Part shown: piece by piece, positions 5,019 through 17,079 of the stretch
Layout: the number at the start of each line of letters is the position of its first letter
Numbering within the stretch: position 1 is the first letter of the stretch
The notes under the pieces: model-generated
What the model was told of the DNA's origin: nothing
The model's input: the letters and a program-made list of their open reading frames with translations, nothing else
Database searches by the model: none
Program-made: the position numbers and the translations under genes
Assembly (NCBI GenBank): GCA_050014195.1
Contig: JBEKDT010000009.1
Span: forward strand, 32,001-96,000
Direction of reading: 5' to 3'
Origin: Desulfomonilia bacterium
GTDB lineage: Bacteria; Desulfobacterota; Desulfomonilia; UBA1062
Length of the DNA: 64,000 nt

Positions 5019-6311
5019 ATGAAGGCATGTCCGATATCGAAATTTTCTCATCACATAAGTGAGACGGTTACTGTCAAGGGATGGGTCGCCAACCGGAGAT
5101 CGAGCGGCAAGGTATCCTTTCTGATTATACGCGACGGATCCGGAGCCTGCCAGGCCATTGCAGAGAAGGAGGTCATGGGCGATTTCTACGAAGAGATCAG
5201 GAAACTGCCGTTAGAGTCCTCGGTGGTTGTCACAGGGAACGTCGTGGAAGAACCCAGGTCACCCGGCGGCTATGAGTTGCATGTTTCGGGCATGGAAATC
5301 CTGCAGAAATCGGAAGAATTCCCCATCGGCAAGAAGGAGCACGGTCCGGACTTCCTGCTGGGGATACGCCACCTGTGGCTGCGTACACCCAGGCAGGTCG
5401 CTATTATGCGGGTTCGTGACGCGCTGGTCAGGTACGTGCGAGAGTTCTTTTATAAGAACGATTTCACCCTTATCGACACCCCCATCTTCACTACCACCGT
5501 AGGTGAGGATTCATCAAATCTCTTCTCGGTGGAATACTTTGATCTGGGGAAGACCTACCTGTCGCAGACAGGACAGCTCTACCTCGAGGCAGCCATCTTC
5601 GGTCTCGGCAAGGTCTACTGTCTGGGGCCTACCTTCAGGGCCGAGCGCTCCAAGACCAGACGGCACCTCACGGAGTTCTGGATGGTAGAGGGTGAGATGG
5701 CCTTCTTCGAACATAAGGATAACCTGGAGCTCCAGGAGAACTTCGTTTCGGCCATCGTGCAGAACACCATCAGAGAAAAGGCCGATGAACTGAAAAAGCT
5801 CGAGCGCGATATCGAGCCCCTGAAGAAGGTGGAGCCGCCGTTTTTCAGGGTTACCTATGACGAGGCAATCGAGATTCTGCATAAGCATGGCTCAGACATT
5901 CAGTGGGGCTCCGACCTGGGTGGGGACGATGAGACCATCATCACGCAACTTTTTGACAAGCCCGTGTTCATCGAGTGTTATCCCAAGAAGACCAAGGCCT
6001 TCTACATGAAACAACATCCTGAAAGGTCCGAACTCGTCCTGTGCGCTGATCTGCTGGCCCCGGAAGGCTATGGTGAGATCATCGGCGGATCGCAGCGCGA
6101 AGACAACCCGGAGATACTTATGAAATCCATCCTTGATAATGGGTTGGACCCCGAGCGCTATGGGTGGTACTTCGACCTCAGAAAGTACGGCAGCGTGCCG
6201 CATTCCGGGTTCGGTCTCGGCATAGAGCGGACTCTTTCGTGGATCTGCGGGCTCAAGCATGTACGCGAGACCATCCCCTTCCCGAGGATGCTCTATAGGG
6301 CATATCCGTAA
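5019..6311 (+). CDS. asnS: Asparagine--tRNA ligase
   Basis: OB-fold N-terminus, YLSQTGQLYLE, PTFRAERSKTRRHLTEFWM, GEIIGGSQRE, PHSGFGLGIER. Confidence 0.96.
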   Translation: MKACPISKFSHHISETVTVKGWVANRRSSGKVSFLIIRDGSGACQAIAEKEVMGDFYEEIRKLPLESSVVVTGNVVEEPRSPGGYELHVSGMEILQKSEEFPIGKKEHGPDFLLGIRHLWLRTPRQVAIMRVRDALVRYVREFFYKNDFTLIDTPIFTTTVGEDSSNLFSVEYFDLGKTYLSQTGQLYLEAAIFGLGKVYCLGPTFRAERSKTRRHLTEFWMVEGEMAFFEHKDNLELQENFVSAIVQNTIREKADELKKLERDIEPLKKVEPPFFRVTYDEAIEILHKHGSDIQWGSDLGGDDETIITQLFDKPVFIECYPKKTKAFYMKQHPERSELVLCADLLAPEGYGEIIGGSQREDNPEILMKSILDNGLDPERYGWYFDLRKYGSVPHSGFGLGIERTLSWICGLKHVRETIPFPRMLYRAYP

Positions 6312-6316
6312 ATAGA

Positions 6317-6493
6317 TTCTGTCCTTTCTTTTAGTGCTAAAAGAAAGGACCAAAGAAAACGCACCCCAAGAACCCGCCCTAAAGGGTCCGTTCGCTCGCT
6401 TGGAAAATCCGGGCAGCGGCTAACTCGCTTCGCTCGAACATGAGCCGCTTTCTTCCTGAATTTTCCTGCACTCGCTCACCGGGTTCAAGGGGA
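6317..6493 (+). repeat. ~177-bp palindromic MITE/REP-like element, copy A
   Basis: Terminal hairpin GTCCTTTCTTTTAGTGCTAAAAGAAAGGAC; highly similar to the reverse complement of 7512-7698. Confidence 0.85.
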
Positions 6494-6532
6494 CCCATAA
6501 CCCCCATATGCATCACGGTAGATTTAGATTTT

Positions 6533-6558
6533 GTAGGGGCAGCCCTTGTGGCTGCCCT
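6533..6558 (+). repeat. GTAG-type REP-like hairpin
   Basis: GTAGGGGCAGCC-CTTGT-GGCTGCCCT. Confidence 0.6.
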
Positions 6559-6564
6559 TTACTG

Positions 6565-6592
6565 TGTCATCCCCGCGGAAGCGGGAATCCAG
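6565..6592 (+). repeat. REP-like unit TGTCATCCCCGCGGAAGCGGGAATCCAG
   Basis: 27/28 identical to the reverse complement of 56726-56753. Confidence 0.75.
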
Positions 6593-6719
6593 TCTTTTTA
6601 TTAACTTTCTCAATCTGGATAATTTCAAGAATAGAGAGTATTAGGTTCTATGTGGCATGATAATGCACCCCTGATCCTCCAAAACACCACACAGGAAAAA
6701 GTAGCACGCATGTGCCCTG

Positions 6720-6797
6720 AATATCCGGATATACGGCAATTGTGCTTCGGATAACTACTTATGTGAAGCACAATTGCAGTATAGTTATTGTTAGCGC
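6720..6797 (+). other. attI-like cassette insertion site 1
   Basis: Long inverted repeat TATACGGCAATTGTGCTTC...GAAGCACAATTGCAGTATA followed by GTTATT-GTTAGCGC; same terminal motif as 12011-12047. Confidence 0.55.
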
Positions 6798-6807
6798 AGG
6801 ATAAGAC

Positions 6808-7443
6808 ATGATTGACTACGGCAGATTCCCTGAATACTACAAGAACTACACGTGGTCCGGTAAGCATGTGCTGTTTGGCTATCCCCCGGACTCTTTTCCT
6901 GAGTTCAACTGGATTGCGTCTCTTGAAAAGAGGTTCCAGTGGGTGACGAAAAACTGGGCAGCTAACAGCTCGGCATCGAAATATCTCCTTCAAGAGATGA
7001 TCGAATGGGGAGGTAGCCAAAACGGCGTTCTGCAGAAATTCAACGACGCAAGTGGTGAAGTCAATTTGTTCGAGACCCTCGCCGATGTTGTTGATAACCT
7101 ATCCACCCCTGAACTGGCTATTAGTTCCGCCCTTCGCTTGCCTGGCCTTGGCTTAACCTATGCTTCAAAGCTTCTCCGGTTCATGGAACCTGCGACATAT
7201 GGTGCTCTCGATTCGAAAATCAGAGAAGCCCTCAAAGACGATGGGAAACTCCCGAAGATATACGACGGTAACCATAACAGCATGGTGTCTGGCTATGTTC
7301 GGTTCATCAATCTATTGGAGGAAATAAGCGCAGTTTTGAAGCAGAAAGGAATTACGAAGCCAGTCTGCAACCTGAGTGACAACGGTAGCTGGCGAGCGTG
7401 TGAAATCGAAATGGCGCTGTTTTGTTGGGCAGGAAATCAGTAA
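6808..7443 (+). CDS. Hypothetical protein, HhH DNA glycosylase (OGG-like) fold suspected
   Basis: WGG motif, HhH-like LPGLGLTYASKLLRF, P..YGALDS, C-terminal EIEMALF. Confidence 0.55.
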   Translation: MIDYGRFPEYYKNYTWSGKHVLFGYPPDSFPEFNWIASLEKRFQWVTKNWAANSSASKYLLQEMIEWGGSQNGVLQKFNDASGEVNLFETLADVVDNLSTPELAISSALRLPGLGLTYASKLLRFMEPATYGALDSKIREALKDDGKLPKIYDGNHNSMVSGYVRFINLLEEISAVLKQKGITKPVCNLSDNGSWRACEIEMALFCWAGNQ

Positions 7444-7445
7444 AG

Positions 7446-7513
7446 GCGCTAACAACGGCATGAAGCGGATCGTGTCCCTGGCGGGCCACTCCCTCTTATG
7501 CCGAGCGTTTTTC
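7446..7513 (+). other. attC recombination site 1
   Basis: R'' GCGCTAAC; L'' GGCAT(G)AAG pairs with L' CTTATGCC leaving one extrahelical G; ends GAGC-GTT (7507). Confidence 0.82.
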
Positions 7514-7698
7514 CCCTTGAACCCGGTGAGCGAGTGCAGGAAAATCCGGGGGAACAGCGGCGTCTGTCTGAGCGGAGTGAAACGAAGCGAGTTCAGCCGC
7601 GGCCCGGATTTTCCAAGCGAGCGAACGGACCCGAAGGGCGGGTTCACGGGGTGCCTTTTCTTTCGTCCTTTCTTTTGGCACCAAAAGAAAGGACAGAA
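7512..7698 (-). repeat. ~187-bp palindromic MITE/REP-like element, copy B (inverted relative to copy A)
   Basis: Reverse complement aligns end to end with 6317-6493, with a diverged middle. Confidence 0.85.
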
Positions 7699-7770
7699 AA
7701 ATATATTCTAAAAAGAAAAAACACCACTTCATTAACCGAAGTGATGGGGGATGAGTTTGAGAAAAAAGGC

Positions 7771-7845
7771 TGGAGCGGGAAACGGGATTCGAACCCGCGA
7801 CTTTAACCTTGGCAAGGTTACACTCTACCACTGAGTTATTCCCGC
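7771..7845 (-). tRNA. tRNA-Gly(GCC)
   Basis: Reverse complement GCGGGAATAACTCAGTGGTAGAGTGTAACCTTGCCAAGGTTAAAGTCGCGGGTTCGAATCCCGTTTCCCGCTCCA: cloverleaf, GCC anticodon, encoded CCA. Confidence 0.97.
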
Positions 7846-7855
7846 GCCATCGCCA

Positions 7856-7884
7856 CTTATATGCAAGAGGCCTTTTTTTGTCAA
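7856..7884 (-). promoter_or_regulatory. Sigma70-type promoter of tRNA-Gly
   Basis: TTGACA-17 bp-TATAAG on the minus strand just upstream of the tRNA. Confidence 0.75.
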
Positions 7885-8092
7885 GGCACATTTCCCCGGG
7901 ATAATAATATCGCATGATGGCTCTACAAGACCAGTGACAGACGATCCGTCTTTAGAGGATTCATTTGGGATCGGCCCCATGTCCATTGACAAAATTCCAA
8001 GAGACATTACTAAAAAGAGAATGGAGACATGTTCCTTTGTTTAAGGTGGCCGGTTCAACATCGGGGGAATCGTTTCAGATTTGAGGTGGAAT

Positions 8093-9007
8093 ATGGATGA
8101 AAAACAATCGAGCACAAGTGCCTCTATGGAATTTTTCCAACCTTTGATGGCCATGGTGAACCAGTTTTTATCCGGGCTTCCCGGCATGATGTCCGGCCAA
8201 AAAATGAGCGAGCGAGAGGCCAAGCCGGATAGCCACTCACGATTTTCACCGGATGCCCTGCTCTCCATTATCAAGACCTGGGGGACCTTATCTTCAGCCA
8301 TGAGTGAGCCGTCTGCAACCGGAGCTATCGCAAGCGGCATGGCCTCCCTGCCCGATATCATGTCCAGGTTCTTCCAGACAGGCATGTCGGGCTTTTTGAA
8401 GATCCATGAACAGACCGCAGACAAACTCAAGGACCTTGGAAAACGCACCGAGGCCTATAGGTTCGAAAACCTGGACCAGGACAGCATCAAGGTATGGTCC
8501 GACTTTTATGACAAGGAGATCCGCCAATACCTCAGAGTCCCCCAGCTCGGGCTGGTACGTTTCTACCAGGAGAGGTTTTACCAGACCATTGACAAGTTCA
8601 ATGTCTTTTCCACCACCTTAGCCGAATTCATGCATGTCCTCATGCTCCCCATGGAGAAGACATTCATGGTCTTGCATGATAAGATCGAGGAACAGATCAG
8701 GGAGGGCAAAACCCCTGAAGACCCTCACGAATACTACCGATTGTGGGTGAAGATCCTCGAAGGCCACTACATGACCTTGTTCAAGACTTCCGAGTACACC
8801 AAGGCCCTGTCCGATACATTGAAAACGTATGAGGAATACTTAAGCGCCCGCAACCAAATCGTTACGGATGCCATGCAGTCACTCCCCATACCCACGAACA
8901 AGGACCTCGACGACCTTTACGATGAGCTCTATCACCTCAAGAAACGGGTTAAGGATCTGGAAAAGGCGAACAAGGACCTCAAGAAGTCAGCTGCATCAGG
9001 AGGCTAA
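8093..9007 (+). CDS. phaE: Class III PHA synthase subunit PhaE
   Basis: PQLGLVRFYQE, YYRLWVK, C-terminal LPIPTNKDLDDLYDELYHLKKRVKDLE; directly upstream of phaC; GAGGTG SD before the ATG at 8093. Confidence 0.88.
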   Translation: MDEKQSSTSASMEFFQPLMAMVNQFLSGLPGMMSGQKMSEREAKPDSHSRFSPDALLSIIKTWGTLSSAMSEPSATGAIASGMASLPDIMSRFFQTGMSGFLKIHEQTADKLKDLGKRTEAYRFENLDQDSIKVWSDFYDKEIRQYLRVPQLGLVRFYQERFYQTIDKFNVFSTTLAEFMHVLMLPMEKTFMVLHDKIEEQIREGKTPEDPHEYYRLWVKILEGHYMTLFKTSEYTKALSDTLKTYEEYLSARNQIVTDAMQSLPIPTNKDLDDLYDELYHLKKRVKDLEKANKDLKKSAASGG

Positions 9008-9010
9008 GTT

Positions 9011-10219
9011 ATGGAGGAAAAACCAAAGATCCCGGTCGACATAATTCTGAAGCACCTCGCGGAAGATGCTGACAAGGCCCAGGACCGTGCAAAAAAGGCC
9101 TCCGAGGTGCTGCTGGGCCCCCTGGAAACAGCGATCGCCACCACCCCATACGAGGTTATCTACCAACAGGACCGTGTCAAGCTGAAACATTACCTGCCCA
9201 TGCGCGAACCATCGAAAGAGATTACCACCCCACTGCTCGTAGTCTATGCCCTCATCAACCGGGAGACCATGCTCGATCTCCAGCCTGAACGTAGCGTAGT
9301 GAAGAACTTTCTTCAGGCCGGTATCGACCTGTACATGATCGACTGGGGATACCCCACCAGGAAGGATAAGTTGCTTACCATAGACGACCACGTGAACGGT
9401 TATATGGATGACATAGTGGATCACGTAAGGGAAAGGTGCCGGGTGGACAAGGTTAATCTCATGGGCATCTGCATGGGGGGTACCTTTTGCGTGATCTATT
9501 CGGCCCTTCACCCTGAAAAGGTCAGAAACCTCGTGACCACGGTATCACCCACCAACTTTGACACCGACCAGGGACTGCTGCACATCTGGATGAAAAACGT
9601 GGACGTAGACCTGATGGTCGATGCCTTCGGCAACATGCCTGGTGACATCATGAACTTCGGGTTCCTCCTGCTGAACCCGGCTCGCCTTATGATCGACAAG
9701 TATGTGGGTTTTATGGAGAACATGGACAACAAGACCTTTGTGGAGAACTTCATCCGCATGGAAAAGTGGATCTTTGACAGCCCGGATGTGCCGGGTGAGA
9801 CCTTCCGTCAGTTCGTGAAGGACTGCTATCAGAAGAACCTCCTCATCCAGAGCAAGCTCTTTGTGGGAGGAAAACGCGTAGACCTCAAGAAGATTACCAT
9901 GCCCCTGCTCAATATCTACGGACTCTACGACCATCTCGTGCCGCCCGGGGCTGCAGACAAGATCACCGGTGCAGTGGGAAGCACGGACAAGGAGGATCTC
10001 TGCCTTGATACAGGCCACATCGGCATATATGTGAGTTCCAAGACTCAGAGGGAATTCACACCGAAGATCATCCGGTGGCTCAAGGACAGGGACACCCCAA
10101 AAAAAGAAGCGACCGTGAAAAAACAGCCCGTCCGCAAGACGCCTAAAAAGGCTGCAAAAGGCTCGTGGATAACCAGGACAAAGAATACCACCCGTTCAAA
10201 GGAGATAACCAATGCCTGA
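9011..10219 (+). CDS. phaC: Class III PHA synthase subunit PhaC
   Basis: PLLVVYALINR..MLDLQ, IDWGYP, lipase box GICMGG, MEKWIFDSPD, DHLVPP, TGHIG. Confidence 0.95.
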   Translation: MEEKPKIPVDIILKHLAEDADKAQDRAKKASEVLLGPLETAIATTPYEVIYQQDRVKLKHYLPMREPSKEITTPLLVVYALINRETMLDLQPERSVVKNFLQAGIDLYMIDWGYPTRKDKLLTIDDHVNGYMDDIVDHVRERCRVDKVNLMGICMGGTFCVIYSALHPEKVRNLVTTVSPTNFDTDQGLLHIWMKNVDVDLMVDAFGNMPGDIMNFGFLLLNPARLMIDKYVGFMENMDNKTFVENFIRMEKWIFDSPDVPGETFRQFVKDCYQKNLLIQSKLFVGGKRVDLKKITMPLLNIYGLYDHLVPPGAADKITGAVGSTDKEDLCLDTGHIGIYVSSKTQREFTPKIIRWLKDRDTPKKEATVKKQPVRKTPKKAAKGSWITRTKNTTRSKEITNA

Positions 10220-11264
10220 GAAAAGTGACTACTTCAAGACCTTCTGCAAGGTGAGCAGGGCCTTCGGCACTACGCTGAAAAAGGAAAAGGTGCTTGACCT
10301 CATTGTGCAGAGCGCCATTGAAACTATGGATGGCAAGGCAGCATGCCTCTTCTTCGAAGATGATCAGAAAGAAAGCGATATCTTTGTCCCCATAGCCCAG
10401 AAAGGCCTCTCGAAGAGCTATCTCCACGCAGAGCCCAGGGAGGCCAAGCGGGCTTCGGAAGAGATCATGAAGAAGGGATATATCGCCATACACGATGCCA
10501 CCACAGACCCTCGGGTGAAGACACACGAACTCAAAAAGAAGGAAGGGATCGCATCCATCCTGGTAGTGCCGGTCGTCGTAAAGGAGAGGGTAAAAGGCGT
10601 GCTCACCCTGTATACGGGTAAGCCCCGGATCTTTTCCGATGACGAGATCCTTTTCCTCACGGCGCTTGCCGAACAAGGCGGAATGGCCATTGAGCGGGCC
10701 CGACTCGTTATGCAGATCACACGGAACATCCGTATCTTTACCAACATAGCCCAGGGGCTTAACGAGAGTCTGGATATAAAAATAATCATGGAGCGTCTGT
10801 CCGTGGACATGGCCGATGCCCTTGGTGTCAAGGCGGTTTCCGTGCGGCTCATCGATAAGGACAAGGAGGAACTCGAACTTGTGGCCAGCCACGGCCTGAG
10901 CAAGAAATATCTGAACAAAGGGCCGGTCCGGATCGAGAAGAGCGTTACCGAGGCGCTCAAGGGGAAGACCGTGGTCATCAGGGACGCCACTACCCATAAA
11001 GAGGTACAGTACAAGGATGAGAAAAGGAAGGAGGGTATCGCTTCCATCCTCACTGTGCCCATCAAGGTCAAGGATGAGGTCATCGGGGTCATGAGGTATT
11101 ATTCGGCAGAAGAAAGGGATTTCACCGAGGGTGAGGTCATGCTGGCAGAGGCAGTCGCCAGCCTTGGCGGCCTGGCCATCCAGAATGCATCCATGTACCT
11201 GATGCTGAAACAGGATATACAGTGCCTCAAGGAGGACATCTGGAGCCACCGTTCGTGGTTCTAG
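10212..11264 (+). CDS. Tandem GAF-GAF domain protein without output domain
   Basis: Two internally similar repeats (GLSK.YL ... DATT ... KKEGIASIL.VP ... GGMAI/GGLAI). Confidence 0.85.
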   Translation: MPEKSDYFKTFCKVSRAFGTTLKKEKVLDLIVQSAIETMDGKAACLFFEDDQKESDIFVPIAQKGLSKSYLHAEPREAKRASEEIMKKGYIAIHDATTDPRVKTHELKKKEGIASILVVPVVVKERVKGVLTLYTGKPRIFSDDEILFLTALAEQGGMAIERARLVMQITRNIRIFTNIAQGLNESLDIKIIMERLSVDMADALGVKAVSVRLIDKDKEELELVASHGLSKKYLNKGPVRIEKSVTEALKGKTVVIRDATTHKEVQYKDEKRKEGIASILTVPIKVKDEVIGVMRYYSAEERDFTEGEVMLAEAVASLGGLAIQNASMYLMLKQDIQCLKEDIWSHRSWF

Positions 11265-11289
11265 GCTGTTATAATAAGGAGGGCGACAC

Positions 11290-11712
11290 ATGCTTGGCAG
11301 ATCGATCAATGAAATGAAGATAGGCGATTTCGCGGAATTCTCTAAGACCGTCTCCGAGACGGACATCTACCTTTTTGCAGGCATCGTAGGCGATTTCAAC
11401 CCAGCCCATGTGAATGAGGCATACGCCAAGAACACCTTCTTCAAGACCAGAATCGCCCACGGCATGCTCGCCGCAGGCTTTGTATCCTCAGCCATCGGCA
11501 TGCAGCTGCCTGGACCGGGCACTATCTATATCAGCCAGGAGTTGAAGTTCTTAGGCCCGGTACACATCGGCGACACGGTGACCGCCCACGTGGAGGTCTC
11601 CGAGATGAATATGGAAAAGAACCGGGTGAAGCTCAAGACCTGGTGCGTGAACCAGGACGGCGTGAAGATCCTGGAAGGCGACGCCATGGCAAGCCCGCCG
11701 AAGAAGGGGTAG
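11290..11712 (+). CDS. phaJ: (R)-specific enoyl-CoA hydratase, MaoC family
   Basis: GDFNPAH, RIAHGML, LPGPGTIYISQELKF; in the phaEC operon. Confidence 0.85.
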   Translation: MLGRSINEMKIGDFAEFSKTVSETDIYLFAGIVGDFNPAHVNEAYAKNTFFKTRIAHGMLAAGFVSSAIGMQLPGPGTIYISQELKFLGPVHIGDTVTAHVEVSEMNMEKNRVKLKTWCVNQDGVKILEGDAMASPPKKG

Positions 11713-12010
11713 CGATCGCCGTCAGAAGTTCTTCTTTCTCTTAAGAGTGTCATTATATCTGCGCAGCACCACCTTGATGCTGCGCAGATACTCCCTGCTT
11801 TGACCATTGAAGCATCAAAGAGCACCTCTTGATTCTTGGATTATAGAAATGCTTATGATATATTTAACAACCAGTTAGAATGCGATGTCATCCATGATTC
11901 TGCATCTGAGAAAATCTATGATTTAAAACATGGGAGGATGGACGATCTTGAATTTGCCAGAAGATCAGTTCCCATAATTCAGTAATGAACGAATCCACTC
12001 ATATTCTGTT

Positions 12011-12047
12011 ATACCGGAAAAAGACGGTATAGTAATTGTTCGCCTTT
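12011..12047 (+). other. attI-like cassette insertion site 2
   Basis: ATACCG-N7-CGGTAT inverted repeat then AGTAATT-GTTCGCCTTT; same GTATAGTWATT/GTT end as site 1. Confidence 0.5.
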
Positions 12048-12123
12048 ACTAATACTGCTGTATTGAACTCCATTGCCCTGCAACATGACAAAAACAAAGT
12101 CAAAAATCATTATTGGTTTCTGA

Positions 12124-12152
12124 TTGAATCTTATGCCTCATTTGCTTATGAT
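12124..12152 (+). promoter_or_regulatory. Cassette-internal sigma70-like promoter for the methyltransferase
   Basis: TTGAAT-17 bp-TATGAT ending 9 nt before the ATG at 12162 (near-leaderless). Confidence 0.5.
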
Positions 12153-12161
12153 GTCTGACAA

Positions 12162-13724
12162 ATGAATATATCTGCACTGACAACCATGGAGAAACAGAAG
12201 GCCGAGGCCGATGATCACGCCCTGCTCTCCATACCTGAAAATCTACGCATTAGCTTCTTCTCCTCTACATCCTCACCTCAACAAAAGGAACTCGGGCAGT
12301 TTCTAACGCCTCCACATGTTGCAGACCTCATGGCGACTATGTTTCAGGGTTTTTCGAGAACTGTTCGTTTACTCGACGCAGGGGCAGGCATGGGGATTCT
12401 TTCTGCTGCTTTTGTCCGCCGACAACTCCTTAGCAATACTCCGCCAAAACGAATCGAGGTTACAGCTTACGAAATGGATAAAGCCTTCATCAGTGGGCTC
12501 GAAAAGACCTGCGAAGCTTGTTGTGCTGCGTGCCAGGACAGGGGAATTGAATTCTATGCTACCATCCGGAATGCTGACTTCATTGAAGAAGGTGCAGAGA
12601 TGCTGCGTAATGATCTTTTCTCACAGATGCCACCATCCTTCGATGCTGCTATTGTCAATCCCCCATATGGAAAACTCTCCACAACGTCGGTGGCCTATCG
12701 CCGCCTACGATCTGTGGGCGCTGAAACAACTAACATGTATACTGCTTTTCTGAACTTGATCATCGGTCTGTTGAAACCTCATGGTGAACTTGTCGCCATA
12801 ACGCCTCGTAGTTTCTGCAATGGTCCTTATTTCAAGCCGTTTCGTAAACGTCTTATTTCAGAAATGTCGTTTTGCGATATCCATGTCTTTGAATCAAGGA
12901 AAACGGCCTTCAAGCATGACAGCGTCTTACAGGAAAACATTATTCTACATGCCGTTAAGTCTTTGCAGCAAACCCATACAATCCGAGTATCACAGAGCGG
13001 CGGCGGAGACGGAGACGCTGTTCAAACTTGTGTGTTTCCGGCTATCGAAATCGTATCGCCCCGGGATACCGAGGCTTTCATTCATATTCCAACCACCCCA
13101 AAGGATGTCGTCGCGCGCAATCAGATATCGCAACTTGAGGCAACACTATCGTCTCTCGGCTTGACGGTTTCGACTGGTCGAGTTGTAGATTTTCGCGCGC
13201 GGGAACATATCCGGCAAGAACCTGAGCGCTGTTTTGCTCCTCTAATCTACCCTTGCCACTTTGATGGGCTTTTTGTGTCTTGGCCTAAGGTGAACTCCCG
13301 CAAACCCAATGCGATTCTTGATAATGCTGGTACTCAAAGTCTCCTCATTCCGGCTGGTGTGTACGTCTTGACGAAGCGGTTCACATCTAAAGAAGAGCGG
13401 CGTCGGGTTGTCGCCTGTATTTATGATCCGAGTCGTGTTCAAGCAGAGCATGTTGGCCTCGAGAACCACTTAAATTACATCCATGCCAGTGGTAGGGGTA
13501 TTGACATGACCTTGGCAAAGGGTCTCTGGGCTTTTCTCAATTCGTCACCTTTGGATCTTTATTTTCGTCAATTCAACGGACACACCCAGGTCAATGCAAC
13601 TGACCTACGCAATGTGAGATTCCCTTCCGCCGAACAGCTTCGCCGAATCGGCCACCAAATTCTAGAAGAATCCATTGGCCAGGAAAAAATCGACCAACTC
13701 ATCAGCTGGGAGTTGAAATCATGA
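12162..13724 (+). CDS. N6-adenine DNA methyltransferase, M.BsuBI/M.PstI-like
   Basis: LGQFLTP, LLDAGAGMG (motif I), NPPY (motif IV), ITPRSFCNGPYF, VSTGRVVDFR, FNGHTQVNATDLR. Confidence 0.92.
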   Translation: MNISALTTMEKQKAEADDHALLSIPENLRISFFSSTSSPQQKELGQFLTPPHVADLMATMFQGFSRTVRLLDAGAGMGILSAAFVRRQLLSNTPPKRIEVTAYEMDKAFISGLEKTCEACCAACQDRGIEFYATIRNADFIEEGAEMLRNDLFSQMPPSFDAAIVNPPYGKLSTTSVAYRRLRSVGAETTNMYTAFLNLIIGLLKPHGELVAITPRSFCNGPYFKPFRKRLISEMSFCDIHVFESRKTAFKHDSVLQENIILHAVKSLQQTHTIRVSQSGGGDGDAVQTCVFPAIEIVSPRDTEAFIHIPTTPKDVVARNQISQLEATLSSLGLTVSTGRVVDFRAREHIRQEPERCFAPLIYPCHFDGLFVSWPKVNSRKPNAILDNAGTQSLLIPAGVYVLTKRFTSKEERRRVVACIYDPSRVQAEHVGLENHLNYIHASGRGIDMTLAKGLWAFLNSSPLDLYFRQFNGHTQVNATDLRNVRFPSAEQLRRIGHQILEESIGQEKIDQLISWELKS

Positions 13725-14707
13725 GCCCACCATCCAGCAAAGGCAAGCCTCTCGGTATGCGAAAGCTAAAAGAGGCTATGGCGATACTGCGCGCTGTTGG
13801 TTTTGGCCCAAAACAAACCAACGATGTCGCTGGATATGTTCTTCTGGCGCTCCTTGACCTCGGTCCCAATGAAAGTTGGGACGCTGCCCGTAACCCGCGG
13901 CGTGGTATCACTCCGATTATTGAATTCGTAGCCGGTAAGTACCGTTTACGTTATGCCCCAAACACACGCGAGACTATCCGCGACGAAGCCGTGAAGTATT
14001 TTGTTGAAGAGGGGTTTCTCATAAAAAACCCGGACGACCTGAGCCGACCAACGACCAGCGGCAAGACCGTCTATCAGATCGAACCTACAGCACTACGCTT
14101 ATGCCAATCTTTCAAAACGGACATATGGGACTCCACCCTTAAGCACTATCTCTCGACACGAGAAAAGATAAAACGTGAATTACAGCGGGCGAGAGACATA
14201 GCGCGCATCCCAGTGCTGTTGCCGTCTGGCGAGAAGATCACACTTTCGCCCGGTGGTCAGAATCCTCTCATTAAAGCCTTTATCGAGGAGTTCTGCACCC
14301 GTTTTGTTCACAATGGTGTTGTTCTATACGTAGGGGACGCCGAAAACAAGTTCCAACACTTCAAAGTCGAATACTTCAAGAGTCTAGGTGTAGAGATAGA
14401 CTCGGCTGCCAAGATGCCTGACATTGTTGTCTATGACTCCAAGCGTCAATGGCTGGTCATCGGCGAAGCAGTGACCAGCGCGGGTGTGGTCGACGGTAAA
14501 CGACGCCGTGAACTCAAAGACCTTTTCGGTGGTTTCCACAAGGGGCTTGTATTCGTAACAGCGTTCGATACGCGTGCCGTAATGGGACGTTTTCTCAGTC
14601 AAATTTCATGGGAGACAGAAGTCTGGATCGCTGAAGATCCTGATCACGTTGTCCATTTCAACGGTGAACGCTTTCTTGGCCCGTATCCTGACACTATAAT
14701 TGGATGA
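13721..14707 (+). CDS. BsuBI/PstI family type II restriction endonuclease
   Basis: YAPNTRETIRD, LSPGGQNPLIK, KMPD...EAVTS, ISWETEVW...P.H..HFNGERFLGPY; ATGA overlap with the MTase. Confidence 0.93.
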   Translation: MSPPSSKGKPLGMRKLKEAMAILRAVGFGPKQTNDVAGYVLLALLDLGPNESWDAARNPRRGITPIIEFVAGKYRLRYAPNTRETIRDEAVKYFVEEGFLIKNPDDLSRPTTSGKTVYQIEPTALRLCQSFKTDIWDSTLKHYLSTREKIKRELQRARDIARIPVLLPSGEKITLSPGGQNPLIKAFIEEFCTRFVHNGVVLYVGDAENKFQHFKVEYFKSLGVEIDSAAKMPDIVVYDSKRQWLVIGEAVTSAGVVDGKRRRELKDLFGGFHKGLVFVTAFDTRAVMGRFLSQISWETEVWIAEDPDHVVHFNGERFLGPYPDTIIG

Positions 14708-14715
14708 TCAAAAAA

Positions 14716-14772
14716 GGCGAACAAAAGGATGCATCGGACGGCTAAAGCCGCCGGTGATCCGCAGCGTTGGCG
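14716..14772 (+). other. attC recombination site 2
   Basis: R'' GGCGAAC; GGAT(G)CATCGG pairs with CCGGTGATCC leaving an extrahelical G; central CGGC-TAAA-GCCG hairpin; R' GTTGGCG. Confidence 0.85.
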
Positions 14773-14909
14773 CGGCGCTTTGGTAGTTGCAGTGAAAAAG
14801 CAGGGGGGGGCTTTCATTGGTTGGAAAAAGGGTACAGATTTATTTTCTCATAGCGAATAACCATGCCATCAATACAAATGCGGGCTGCCGCCCGTATCCC
14901 TGATCCGCG

Positions 14910-15494
14910 CTACTTTACGGTCTTTGCGCTGTGGTGTGCGGGTTTCTTCGCTGCGGCCTTGGCGGGTTTGGGCTTCGCCTTTGCTGGAGCAGAAGTCTTC
15001 GGTTGTGCCGCTGCGGCTTTTGAAGGTTTTTCAAAGACCGAGGTCGCGCTCTTCATGAAATCCTGATACTGCCTGGCCTGGTCGTTGATGAGCTCCTGGA
15101 ACCCCTTGAGCCCCTCGACAGGTGAGCGGAGCTTATCGTCCAGGAGGGTCCTCAGGTGGGCAAGACCTTCCTCCAGTTCGGCTATCCTCTTTTTTAAGTC
15201 ATGATTTTCCCGGGACAGCGTGATGTATTCCTTCCTGGGTACAAGGTCCATCATAATGGCGAGTTCGCTGAAGGATTTCTGGAAATCATCAAAGGCTTTA
15301 TGCCACACATTGAGGTATCCTGGGGCCTTCTCTGTTTCAGGATCGAGGCCGTACATACGGCAGAAGAGTGCTGTGATGTCTTTGGAGTCGCCGAAATTGC
15401 CGGAATACCACTTCATGATGTCTTCGAGCTGCTGTTGTCCCTTGGCTGCGTTGATCATGATGTTGCCCCAAAATTCGAGAAACTGCTTATCCAT
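14910..15494 (-). CDS. Hypothetical PHA-associated protein (PhaE-like coiled coil, Ala/Lys/Pro-rich tail)
   Basis: Start MDKQFLEFW overlaps the upstream stop; VPRKEY...LKKRIAELE resembles the PhaE C-terminus; tail KAAAAQPKTSAPAKAKPKPAKAAAKK. Confidence 0.65.
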   Translation of the reverse strand: MDKQFLEFWGNIMINAAKGQQQLEDIMKWYSGNFGDSKDITALFCRMYGLDPETEKAPGYLNVWHKAFDDFQKSFSELAIMMDLVPRKEYITLSRENHDLKKRIAELEEGLAHLRTLLDDKLRSPVEGLKGFQELINDQARQYQDFMKSATSVFEKPSKAAAAQPKTSAPAKAKPKPAKAAAKKPAHHSAKTVK

Positions 15495-17079
15495 GGGATT
15501 TCCCCTTTCCGACCTCTTCATCGAGGTCAAGCTGGAACCGTACCGGCCCTCGCATGCCATTTGCAAAGCGCTTCTGGATGGCATATTCCGTATCGGGCTG
15601 AGACCAGGTCGTGGCGATGGCGCCATGTCCCTTGGGAAACACGGTAACCTCGGCATCCACATAATCGAGAGGTGCACGGGCCGACTCTTTGTCCACAAGA
15701 TCATCGCTCTCCGCATAACAGATGAGGAACTTGATGCCTTTCTCACCGATCCGCTTGAAGTTGAGCTTACGGCCGAAGAGCTTTACCGGCAGGGTCCCGT
15801 CTGCGGCCACCGGAACCGTATATGAGTCAAAGCTCAACTTGGTGATAGCCACCGGTATATCCTTGCGGTCATAGATGAGCCAGTGGTTCAGCGCGGCAGC
15901 GGTCTTGGTGATCTTCACGTCCTTACCCGCGGGATCGTCGAACAGCATGAGGTCACGGTAAAGGGTATAGATGGGTGCCTCTCTGTCCATGCTCTTGAGC
16001 TTATACACCCAGCTCATTACCTTACCATCGACCACGGAGTTGCCGCTTGGCAGATCCTTAACGGCATAACCAAGATCACGAAAGCGGTTTGGCAGGTGAG
16101 CGAGATACTCGATTAAGGCCTTGCTCCTGGTGCCGTCCATGGGCGCCACACAGGTGATGAGCGCATCCACAAGGCCGTCCAGCTCGCCCGTTACAATGTC
16201 AAGGACCGCTATAAATCCGCCCTGGCAGAAGCCGTTCAGCGTAACAGGAAGCCCGTGTTTCTTCTTGATGATCTCGCAGAAATAGCGTGTGTCCAACGCG
16301 TCGTCTTCACCGGTCATGGTCTGGACCGCAGGGGTGGTCTCAATATCTTTGAGTACGCGCACATAGGTGGGAATACCCTGGTTGGCATACGCATGGACAT
16401 AGCTCTTGCCCTCACCGGGGAGAAAGCCGAGTATATTGACGCCAAGCACATACGGTGGGATGATCAGGATCGGCTTTGAGCGCTCTTTGACCTTGATTCC
16501 TTTCAGGGGGAGCACCCGGTAGAGAGTGAAGCGGTCCGTCTCGGCAATCTTCTTATAGCCGTCCCGGTCAAAATGGAATCCATATTCGGGCTCGATATCA
16601 TCGATGGCCTTGGGGTACTCATATACTACCTTTTCCAAGAGTTTGGCCTGGCGTTCCACGAAGGATTTTATATCCTCGCCTTCCCGCTCGAATATGGTAT
16701 TGAGCCAGGCATTGAATGCCCGGGAGAGCTCGTTCATGTGGAAATCGGTCATTGCCTTCATCGAACTATGAAAGCCTTTTTGTGCCACCTGTATGTTGAA
16801 CTGGAGTAGCTCGAGATAGTCGCGGATGCTCTCCTGGGGGGTGTGGCGCACAAGCTTATCCCGTTCCGTTACCGTGAAGGAGTTCAAAGCGATCCAGAAG
16901 GGGGTCATGAATTCATTGAGGTATTTGAATACGCCGTTAAAATATATTCCATTGGCCTTGAGCTTTTCCTGGGTGGCCCCGCCTATGGTGAGACTCAATC
17001 CCATGAGCCTTTCAATGCCTTTGAGAACTGCACCATAGCTCTCAAAACTTAAACCCGTTGCTTCCTTGATGTCTTCCAT
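15487..17079 (-). CDS. Divergent PHA synthase-like alpha/beta hydrolase
   Basis: PILIIPPYV, Cys lipase box GFCQGG, ESDDLV (Asp), KGHGAI (His); long helical N-terminal extension. Confidence 0.7.
   Translation of the reverse strand: MEDIKEATGLSFESYGAVLKGIERLMGLSLTIGGATQEKLKANGIYFNGVFKYLNEFMTPFWIALNSFTVTERDKLVRHTPQESIRDYLELLQFNIQVAQKGFHSSMKAMTDFHMNELSRAFNAWLNTIFEREGEDIKSFVERQAKLLEKVVYEYPKAIDDIEPEYGFHFDRDGYKKIAETDRFTLYRVLPLKGIKVKERSKPILIIPPYVLGVNILGFLPGEGKSYVHAYANQGIPTYVRVLKDIETTPAVQTMTGEDDALDTRYFCEIIKKKHGLPVTLNGFCQGGFIAVLDIVTGELDGLVDALITCVAPMDGTRSKALIEYLAHLPNRFRDLGYAVKDLPSGNSVVDGKVMSWVYKLKSMDREAPIYTLYRDLMLFDDPAGKDVKITKTAAALNHWLIYDRKDIPVAITKLSFDSYTVPVAADGTLPVKLFGRKLNFKRIGEKGIKFLICYAESDDLVDKESARAPLDYVDAEVTVFPKGHGAIATTWSQPDTEYAIQKRFANGMRGPVRFQLDLDEEVGKGKSHG

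Follow-up and report, generated by a model that had tools for sequence, protein, structure and literature searches.

We analyzed a 64-kb stretch of the genome of a Desulfomonilia bacterium (G000:C9:32001-96000, hereafter the window; G000 is this genome, 4.2 Mb in 29 contigs, and other G numbers denote its relatives). The window contains two integron gene cassettes at separate sites, each closed on its right by an attC recombination site and headed on its left by an attI-like landing site, or pad, with no gene for an integron-integrase (IntI) beside either. About 4.5 kb of host sequence separates the sites and carries a tRNA-Gly(GCC), phaE and phaC (encoding subunits E and C of the polyhydroxyalkanoate synthase), a double-GAF protein and a MaoC dehydratase; the two attC, at 7447 and 14716, lie 7.2 kb apart with host genes between them. 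In window coordinates, the elements of the two sites are as follows.

6713..6792, + strand: attI pad of type A, about 80 nt; core at 6779-6792, crossover between G6790 and T6791; 78 bits by nhmmer.
6791..7507, + strand: cassette 1 (717 nt), made up of an open reading frame (ORF) at 6808-7443 (211 aa) and attC1; R'/R'' pairing of 8 nt.
7447..7513, + strand: attC1; 17.1 bits with attC model R2 (see below), second in the window.
11915..12040, + strand: attI pad of type B; core at 12027-12040, crossover between G12038 and T12039; about 125 nt of homology to an intI-attI spacer.
12039..14766, + strand: cassette 2 (2728 nt), with a predicted PstI/BsuBI-type methyltransferase (12162-13724) and endonuclease (13721-14707); R'/R'' pairing of 10 nt.
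14716..14772, + strand: attC2; 69.4 bits with R2, E 4.5e-19.
14767..14835, + strand: start of a second cassette, truncated and without an ORF (GTTGGCGCGGCGC...poly-G); matches at C18:82218-82275, G003:C44 and G003:C27.

At site 1, the core GTATAGTTATTGTT ends in the crossover triplet GTT (6790-6792), and the R' box GTTAGCGC that begins there (6790-6797) is the exact reverse complement of GCGCTAAC (7446-7453), the box that starts an imperfect hairpin with its closing GTT at 7507-7509. The core at site 2, GTATAGTAATTGTT, likewise ends in GTT (12038-12040); the reverse complement of GTTCGCCTTT (12038-12047) is found without mismatch at 14713-14722, as AAAGGCGAAC, from which a hairpin runs to a closing GTT at 14766-14768. 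A script recovered both complements, the first of 8 nt at an offset of 656 and the second of 10 nt at an offset of 2675. An earlier inspection of the letters and their ORFs, here called the sequence-only reading, had described both cassettes, their exact 8- and 10-nt complements and the near-identical sequence ahead of the two crossovers, and all of these hold up.

We searched for attC with two covariance models. R1 was made from six similar attC of G000 that belong to one subfamily and include attC2, and its sole use was to gather congener attC for the second model; with 150 of 761 first-look candidates scored, attC1 was not among the genome matches listed for R1 (E ≤ 10). R2 was built exclusively from 16 congener sites (E ≤ 1e-4) in arrays beside intact intI in G012, G008, G007 and G002, with the window attC left out. 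Applied unfiltered to both strands of the entire 64 kb, R2 returned attC2 as its best match and attC1 as its second (E 0.012), followed by a third-ranked match of 11.5 bits. The bottom strand of attC1 folds at -17.2 kcal/mol (z -3.79). No Rfam family matches attC1 or attC2, even at E ≤ 10. Two other approaches were set aside: a Python scanner combining AAC...GTT with a hairpin test proved unspecific, giving 11 matches in the window against 14 in a reversed control and missing attC2, and a plain MAFFT alignment of seven diverse attC was discarded for modelling because its 3' side was structurally wrong.

Both cassettes have the R''/L''/L'/R' architecture, extrahelical bases and R'/R'' complementarity that define integron gene cassettes, attC1 weakly so, and they are genuine integron cassettes. 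The extrahelical G that the sequence-only reading had assigned to each attC is present as a bulge; it sits on the + (coding, or 'top') strand, which puts a C on the bottom strand. On the top strand of the 16 congener attC, the first-bulge column has 10 C, 3 T and 3 G, and the second bulge is A in all of them. The window attC are a minority variant of the canonical design rather than sites with the textbook bottom-strand G.

The motif that precedes both crossovers is the core of the attI used in this clade. Its sequence, GTATAGTWATTGTT, occurs exactly seven times in the 4.2-Mb genome, against none for a reversed-pattern control, and 15 times against two when up to one mismatch is allowed; this is the genome scan that the sequence-only reading had proposed. 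From the GTT onward, the sequences behind the seven exact copies are unrelated. We searched 60 relatives (61 genomes counting G000) for this core and for IntI, defined by TIGR02249 with a cut-off of 265 bits, and 16 of the 61 genomes have an IntI above it. G012:C51, G008:C11 and G033:C9 each have the exact core at a distance of 173-194 nt from a full-length intI (>440 bits), oriented away from the gene, and the core also adjoins broken intI in G008:C10 and G024:C42. At G008:C11 and G007:C12, the first cassette starts with GTTATGC at the core GTT and the first attC starts with GCATAAC, the usual pattern left when attI recombines with attC. Lying beside intact intI, with first cassettes that start at its GTT, the motif is therefore a genuine native attI core of the clade and no chance secondary site. 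That a motif shared so closely would not be expected from random secondary-site integration had been the argument of the sequence-only reading, and the congeners bear it out.

Around this core, at least three attI types can be distinguished in the clade, which have just the core in common. For the type-A pad at site 1, identity to the attI next to the intact intI of G008:C11 is 77% over 73 nt, and for the type-B pad at site 2, identity to the attI next to the intact intI of G007:C12 is 88% over 41 nt. In local alignment, site 2 and G007:C12 remain similar through about 125 nt of the intI-attI spacer, up to about 50 nt before the intI start codon; an orphan type-B pad at G008:C5 seems to share this 125-nt limit. 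The window pads are of two attI types with only the 14-nt core in common, not copies of one pad.

The inverted repeat TATAC...GTATA, with the GTATA of the core as its right arm, is real at both sites, as had been noticed from the letters: it folds at -20.3 kcal/mol at site 1 (z -10.1) and at -4.8 kcal/mol at site 2 (z -2.95), and is found in all three attI types. Type-A pads additionally carry two GGATAT.CTGCAA..GTGCA repeats. The attI1 of class 1 integrons consists of a simple site with the direct repeats DR1 and DR2 upstream. Our pads resemble it in layout: the crossover G|TT is at the right end, the length is about 65-80 nt and repeats lie upstream of the core. They differ from attI1 in the GTATA of the core, which forms the right arm of an inverted repeat in every type. 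When both pads were scanned for promoters and terminators, no signal exceeded shuffled expectation.

No tyrosine recombinase is encoded in the window, as the sequence-only reading had stated; PF00589, our model for these enzymes, has no match there, and all 16 of its genome matches lie elsewhere. Nor does the 29-contig assembly contain an IntI, the best TIGR02249 match reaching 82.7 bits against the cut-off of 265. This match is a 340-aa tyrosine recombinase gene of Xer type (C9:15183-15977), and nearly every relative searched has one that scores equally (about 78-88 bits). We considered it as a hidden IntI and rejected it, on account of this wide occurrence and because it is without the IntI-specific middle region (model positions 181-237 unmatched); it is a housekeeping Xer-type enzyme. 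When three congener IntI were run against the genome with tblastn, just distant recombinases and one C-terminal remnant of intI were returned. An intI fragment, which the earlier reading had taken as a sign of two simply decayed integrons, is found at neither window site (hidden Markov model [HMM] search, E ≤ 0.001; tblastn, E ≤ 1). Of the features of a complete integron, an attI at the head of the array with crossover G|TT is present at both sites, and an adjacent intI at neither; having an attC and no nearby intI, each window site on its own is a SALIN, the term for a lone attC site without an integron-integrase.

The intI remnant comprises about 50 codons (48 residues, 56% identity to congener IntI) at C10:179410-179571, and it abuts attC at C10:179556 and 180283. 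A deletion appears to have taken most of intI and its attI there, and this locus is the one clear decayed integron of G000. Two further recombinase genes came to our attention. Contig C7 has two copies, 97.5% identical, of a 1.2-kb segment that encodes a 374-aa tyrosine recombinase (C7:69927-71142 and C7:130613-131839); the protein is not IntI (23.6 bits with TIGR02249), and its second copy begins about 200 nt from a degenerate type-A pad at C7:130337-130414. A 294-aa IntI-like gene occurs twice in G002 (C21:217326-218308 and C5:11654-12457) with about 107+82 bits for TIGR02249, below the cut-off, and at C21 the gene comes immediately downstream of an attI core that points the same way, in the manner of a first cassette.

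Pads of this kind are numerous in the genome. A search with an nhmmer HMM of the 80-nt type-A pad identified 13 type-A pads at E<1e-11 and about six weaker ones, some of them with a degenerate GTT. We tabulated 19 pads in all: 13 of type A, one of type B and five that are core-only. For nine of the 19, one or more attC were detected downstream, within 5 kb and on the strand of the pad, the counts being 1, 2, 2, 2, 15, 3, 1, 2 and 1; by our own arithmetic (about 46 attC, both strands, 4.2 Mb), chance would place an attC within 5 kb of about 3% of positions. The array with 15 detected attC is headed by a pad on contig C1. On C9 itself there are three attI-headed platforms within 40 kb, the third being a type-A pad on the minus strand (C9:4858-6823), 32 kb upstream of site 1, that heads three detected attC. 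The genome thus has the multiple stand-alone attI-like pads, without intI, that the sequence-only reading had proposed. Its further idea that such pads capture cassettes one at a time is no general rule, as other pads of G000 head two, three or 15 detected attC.

The relatives show the same dispersal. The 60 genomes contain 33 exact-core sites, six of which lie beside a listed intI or intI fragment and 27 of which do not, some of the latter being on short contigs. In G007, an orphan type-A pad at C12:47504, 68 kb from an intact intI on the same contig, heads two cassettes (attC of 56.9 and 46.2 bits; 10-nt R'/R'' complement). In G008, an orphan type-B pad at C5:17061 heads one cassette (one attC), and an intact intI lies on another contig.

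Our reading, to which we assign a probability of roughly 0.8, is that both window cassettes are products of integron recombination at genuine attI without adjacent intI, and that attI in this genus is a dispersed multi-copy module. At each site, the attC of a circular cassette would have recombined with attI, as in ordinary integron recombination. The enzyme would have been an IntI of the clade's type, since lost from G000 or residing in unassembled DNA, and in congeners that keep intI the pads may be loaded in trans. Service in trans by a distant IntI had been part of the sequence-only reading; for this strain it finds no enzyme in the assembly, and for the clade it is plausible, given orphan pads in genomes with intact intI. 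Trans loading would be the simplest reading for the clade, to judge from the orphan pads of G007 and G008 and from a comparison of G002 with G003 described below.

The pad and cassette of site 1 sit inside a larger unit, whose flanking parts, together with the neighboring host gene, are these.

6312..6493, + strand: left inverted-repeat arm; its outer end is a palindromic hairpin (6321-6350).
6494..6712, + strand: leader from the arm to the attI; from about 6600 it is common to other units, and it holds a multi-copy GC hairpin (about 6541-6575).
7510..7707, - strand: right inverted-repeat arm, beginning at most 3 nt from the GTT of attC1.
7771..7845, - strand: tRNA-Gly(GCC), a host gene.

The arms form inverted pairs (6317-6493 against 7512-7698) that are 81-97% complementary over about 180 nt. 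Copies of the left arm also occur on contigs C15, C3, C16, C28, C2, C1 and C6. Arm pairs surround leader, pad and cassette sequence at C15, C3, C16, C28 and C2 (the last decayed), and single arms stand at C1 and C6; the armed unit accordingly has six paired loci in G000, and there are many in G003, G013, G002 and G004. Leader positions 107-299 of site 1 match C15 (82%), C28 (70%), C16 and C6. The GC-rich leader hairpin at 6541-6575 (GGGGCAGCC...GGCTGCCCC) is found on at least eight other G000 contigs as well (leader positions about 72-114). The repeated non-coding unit that carries the type-A attI of site 1 comprises, in order, a roughly 180-nt arm, a leader of some 300 nt, the attI with its cassette or cassettes and a second, inverted arm; it may spread by a transposition-like or recombination route. 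Bracketing by two short non-coding repeats is confined to site 1; site 2 is without arms.

The site 1 unit (about 6312-7757) lies between an aminoacyl-tRNA synthetase gene (5019-6311) and the tRNA-Gly, where it inserted in one subclade. In eight congeners (G007, G011, G006, G010, G014, G012, G008 and G001) the unit is missing from this locus, and the gap between synthetase and tRNA genes measures 62-301 nt. The locus is occupied, with orthologous arms, in G003 (inner part of 1964 nt) and G002 (about 6.6 kb). The pads of these two genomes are orthologous, with 90% identity over 245 nt, and diverge immediately after GTTGGGC into different first cassettes: in G002 a GIY-YIG gene with an attC of 35.3 bits behind it, and in G003 an unrelated ORF of 153 aa whose attC scores 30.9 bits. 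Relatives with empty or differently filled pads had been named by the sequence-only reading as something to look for; what we found is loci that are absent in congeners and this one orthologous pad with different cassettes. Of all our observations, the G002/G003 difference speaks most strongly for a turnover of cassettes at a pad without integrase. We also noted that in the armed unit of G002:C7 two ORFs for group II intron reverse transcriptase/maturases (L054 5600-7336 and 7936-9279) lie within the cassette array, just after attC; group II introns target attC sites.

Site 2 is empty in G003, the closest relative, where flanks of 92-97% identity enclose a 184-nt intergenic region with neither pad nor cassette, and it is also empty in G006, G010 and G014. 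G008 has 160 nt more of the upstream spacer in common, followed by a small ORF. The insert in G000 is about 2.9 kb long and is made up of the pad, the 2728-nt cassette and 60-70 nt of the ORF-less cassette start. This truncated second cassette matches C18:82218-82275 (84%), G003:C44 (94%) and G003:C27 (90%). The insert looks like the head of an array (attI, first cassette and a piece of the second) put into an intergenic region. Because it keeps about 125 nt of intI-proximal spacer and has a truncated second cassette at its end, it could stem from an integron, either as a transplanted fragment or as what was left by decay. On C18, the copy of this ORF-less cassette-like element (C18:82218-82300, with the same start and a poly-G run) ends with a complementary R''-like box. 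Downstream of site 2, the overlapping ORFs at 14913-15746 and 15490-17079, both on the - strand, match no Pfam family at E ≤ 0.001; given the overlap, at least one of them is perhaps no gene.

Several observations weigh against our reading. With no IntI in this assembly, there is no sign of pad activity in G000, and several arrays reach contig ends (C7, C10, C12 and C13), which leaves room for an unassembled intI. For ten of the 19 pads no attC was detected, and the GTT of several is degenerate; part of the pad family is therefore decaying. The genome-wide attC counts are minima, as 150 of 761 and 150 of 1440 first-look candidates were scored. attC1 is weak with R2, and its identification therefore leans also on its exact boundaries; in both window attC, the first extrahelical base is a bottom-strand C in place of the usual G. 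The armed unit shows no convincing target-site duplication at the arm ends of the five units inspected, and its largest representative (in G002), which holds the GIY-YIG gene and two group II intron reverse transcriptases, contains no transposase. Finally, site 1 of G000 differs from that of G002 and G003 in attI type and is in the opposite orientation. What sets G000 apart from these relatives is thus an exchange of the entire inner module rather than of a cassette alone, which points to module swapping between units, probably through their arms.

This last point bears directly on the alternative that survives best, in which the blocks arrived at their present positions preloaded, whether because arms recombined homologously, because the armed unit transposed or because an integron fragment was inserted illegitimately, so that the pads captured nothing here and are inert fossils in G000. 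An inner module at site 1 wholly different from that of G002 and G003, down to attI type and orientation, is what such a history would leave; the truncated second cassette at the end of site 2 resembles a piece cut from an array, and the lack of IntI in the assembly and the several degenerate pads fit as well. Against it stands the G002/G003 pad, where the same site is followed by different cassettes from the crossover base on, as capture or exchange at an orphan pad would give, as do the cassette-bearing orphan pads that G007 and G008 possess alongside intact intI. We regard this alternative as unlikely, though it deserves serious weight, and it concerns the history of the two window loci only, leaving their identity unchanged.

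A second alternative, that complete integrons decayed in place through later deletion of the adjacent intI, with attI and cassettes left behind, we consider improbable. Congeners carry several intI per genome (G002 has three full-length genes), G000 has one clear case of such decay in the C10 remnant beside attC, and Cury et al. 2016 (PMC4889954) give intI loss as one origin of attC clusters that lack an integrase. At site 2, the retained spacer of about 125 nt stops about 50 nt short of an intI start, as a deletion might leave it. The remaining evidence runs the other way. Searches at both sites recovered no trace of intI at the thresholds given above; the site 1 leader is common to other units and leaves no room for intI; and G003, the closest relative, is empty at site 2. 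The type-A pads all have the same left limit, at about 80 nt, and the type-B pad of G008:C5 seems to share the limit of about 125 nt, which would be unexpected from independent deletions. In the relatives, moreover, 27 of the 33 exact-core sites are without a listed intI match alongside.

Least probable by far is that single cassettes were inserted at secondary (attG-type) sites, the upstream likeness being a coincidence: IntI does insert cassettes at GWT sites genome-wide, a proposed origin of SALIN (Loot et al., bioRxiv 2022.09.11.507474), and both window insertions are at GTT, but the 41-125 nt upstream share homology with attI regions that adjoin intact intI, enrichment of the 14-nt core is seven to none and type-A pads form an 80-nt family with 13 strong members, so that attG insertion, which involves GWT alone and no attI-like sequence or structure, is ruled out for two sites that are both members of attI families, barring artefacts in these homologies.

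The sequence-only reading had called the cargo probable defence cassettes, which applies to one of the two. The products of cassette 2 match PF07669, PF02384, PF06616 and PF17728 in Pfam and MTase_II (518 bits) and REase_II (369 bits) in PADLOC; on this basis the cassette is predicted to encode a PstI/BsuBI-type restriction-modification pair. An armed unit of G003 contains a homologous pair (46% and 51% amino-acid identity), with an attC of 40.1 bits behind it. The 211-aa protein of cassette 1 belongs to no Pfam or PADLOC family; its best Pfam match, to PF21790 (OGG-like glycosylase), is sub-threshold at 18.6 bits against a cut-off of 27. It has 317 database homologues in several phyla, and every named one is 'hypothetical'.

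Clusters of attC sites lacking an integron-integrase (CALIN) and SALIN are well described (Cury et al. 2016, PMC4889954; Loot et al., bioRxiv 2022.09.11.507474). The origins proposed in these two papers are loss of intI, splitting of arrays and insertion at secondary GWT sites. Cury et al. (PMC4889954) report that 95% of CALIN are remote from intI pseudogenes and that half of all CALIN belong to genomes that have no intI, and they state that attI is unknown for most integrons and could not be searched for. The window sites are like such elements in being attC cassettes without a nearby intI, of the sort that these sources describe as common in intI-less genomes. They differ in being headed by a recognizable native attI that is itself a dispersed multi-copy module, and none of the CALIN origins listed in the two sources predicts such a module.

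Two other known systems invite comparison. Class 1 integrons bracketed by elements resembling MITEs (miniature inverted-repeat transposable elements) are described by Domingues et al. 2012 (PMC3575428), namely 439-bp MITEs in Acinetobacter and a 288-bp integron mobilization unit (IMU) in Enterobacter cloacae, where the integron is defective. As in these cases, going by that account, the armed unit has its platform enclosed by a short non-coding repeat present in two copies, and apparently travels as a whole. Here, by contrast, the arms are about 180 nt long and always inverted, there is no intI at all and six paired loci are present in G000; the host is an environmental anaerobe with no resistance-gene context, and neither a target duplication nor a transposase was found in the units inspected. 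In the chromosomal integrons of Xanthomonas, IntI activity has been progressively lost while arrays and CALIN remain, and mobilization of CALIN in trans is stated in the same study (PMC12444791). Those integrons descend, as described there, from one ancestral platform at a fixed locus downstream of ilvD, whereas at least a dozen attI-headed platforms per genome occur here. A shallow search of the literature returned no description of attI as a dispersed multi-copy module.

The native attI is recognizable in this clade because congeners keep it next to intI. We tentatively suggest, as a broader proposal that we hold to be rather less than an even bet, a 'distributed integron', in which attI in this genus is a mobile multi-copy landing pad, spread in part by a non-autonomous carrier with inverted arms of about 180 nt, and one IntI, or a transiently acquired one, loads many sites around the chromosome in place of a single array; many CALIN and SALIN in other bacteria could then likewise be headed by attI, overlooked because the attI there is unknown. 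The origin of integrase-less cassette clusters is an open question, and dispersed attI pads offer a new way to explain them. If attI spreads independently of intI, the integron need not be one locus: cassette capture could take place at many chromosomal addresses, and counts of CALIN and SALIN would need to be read anew.

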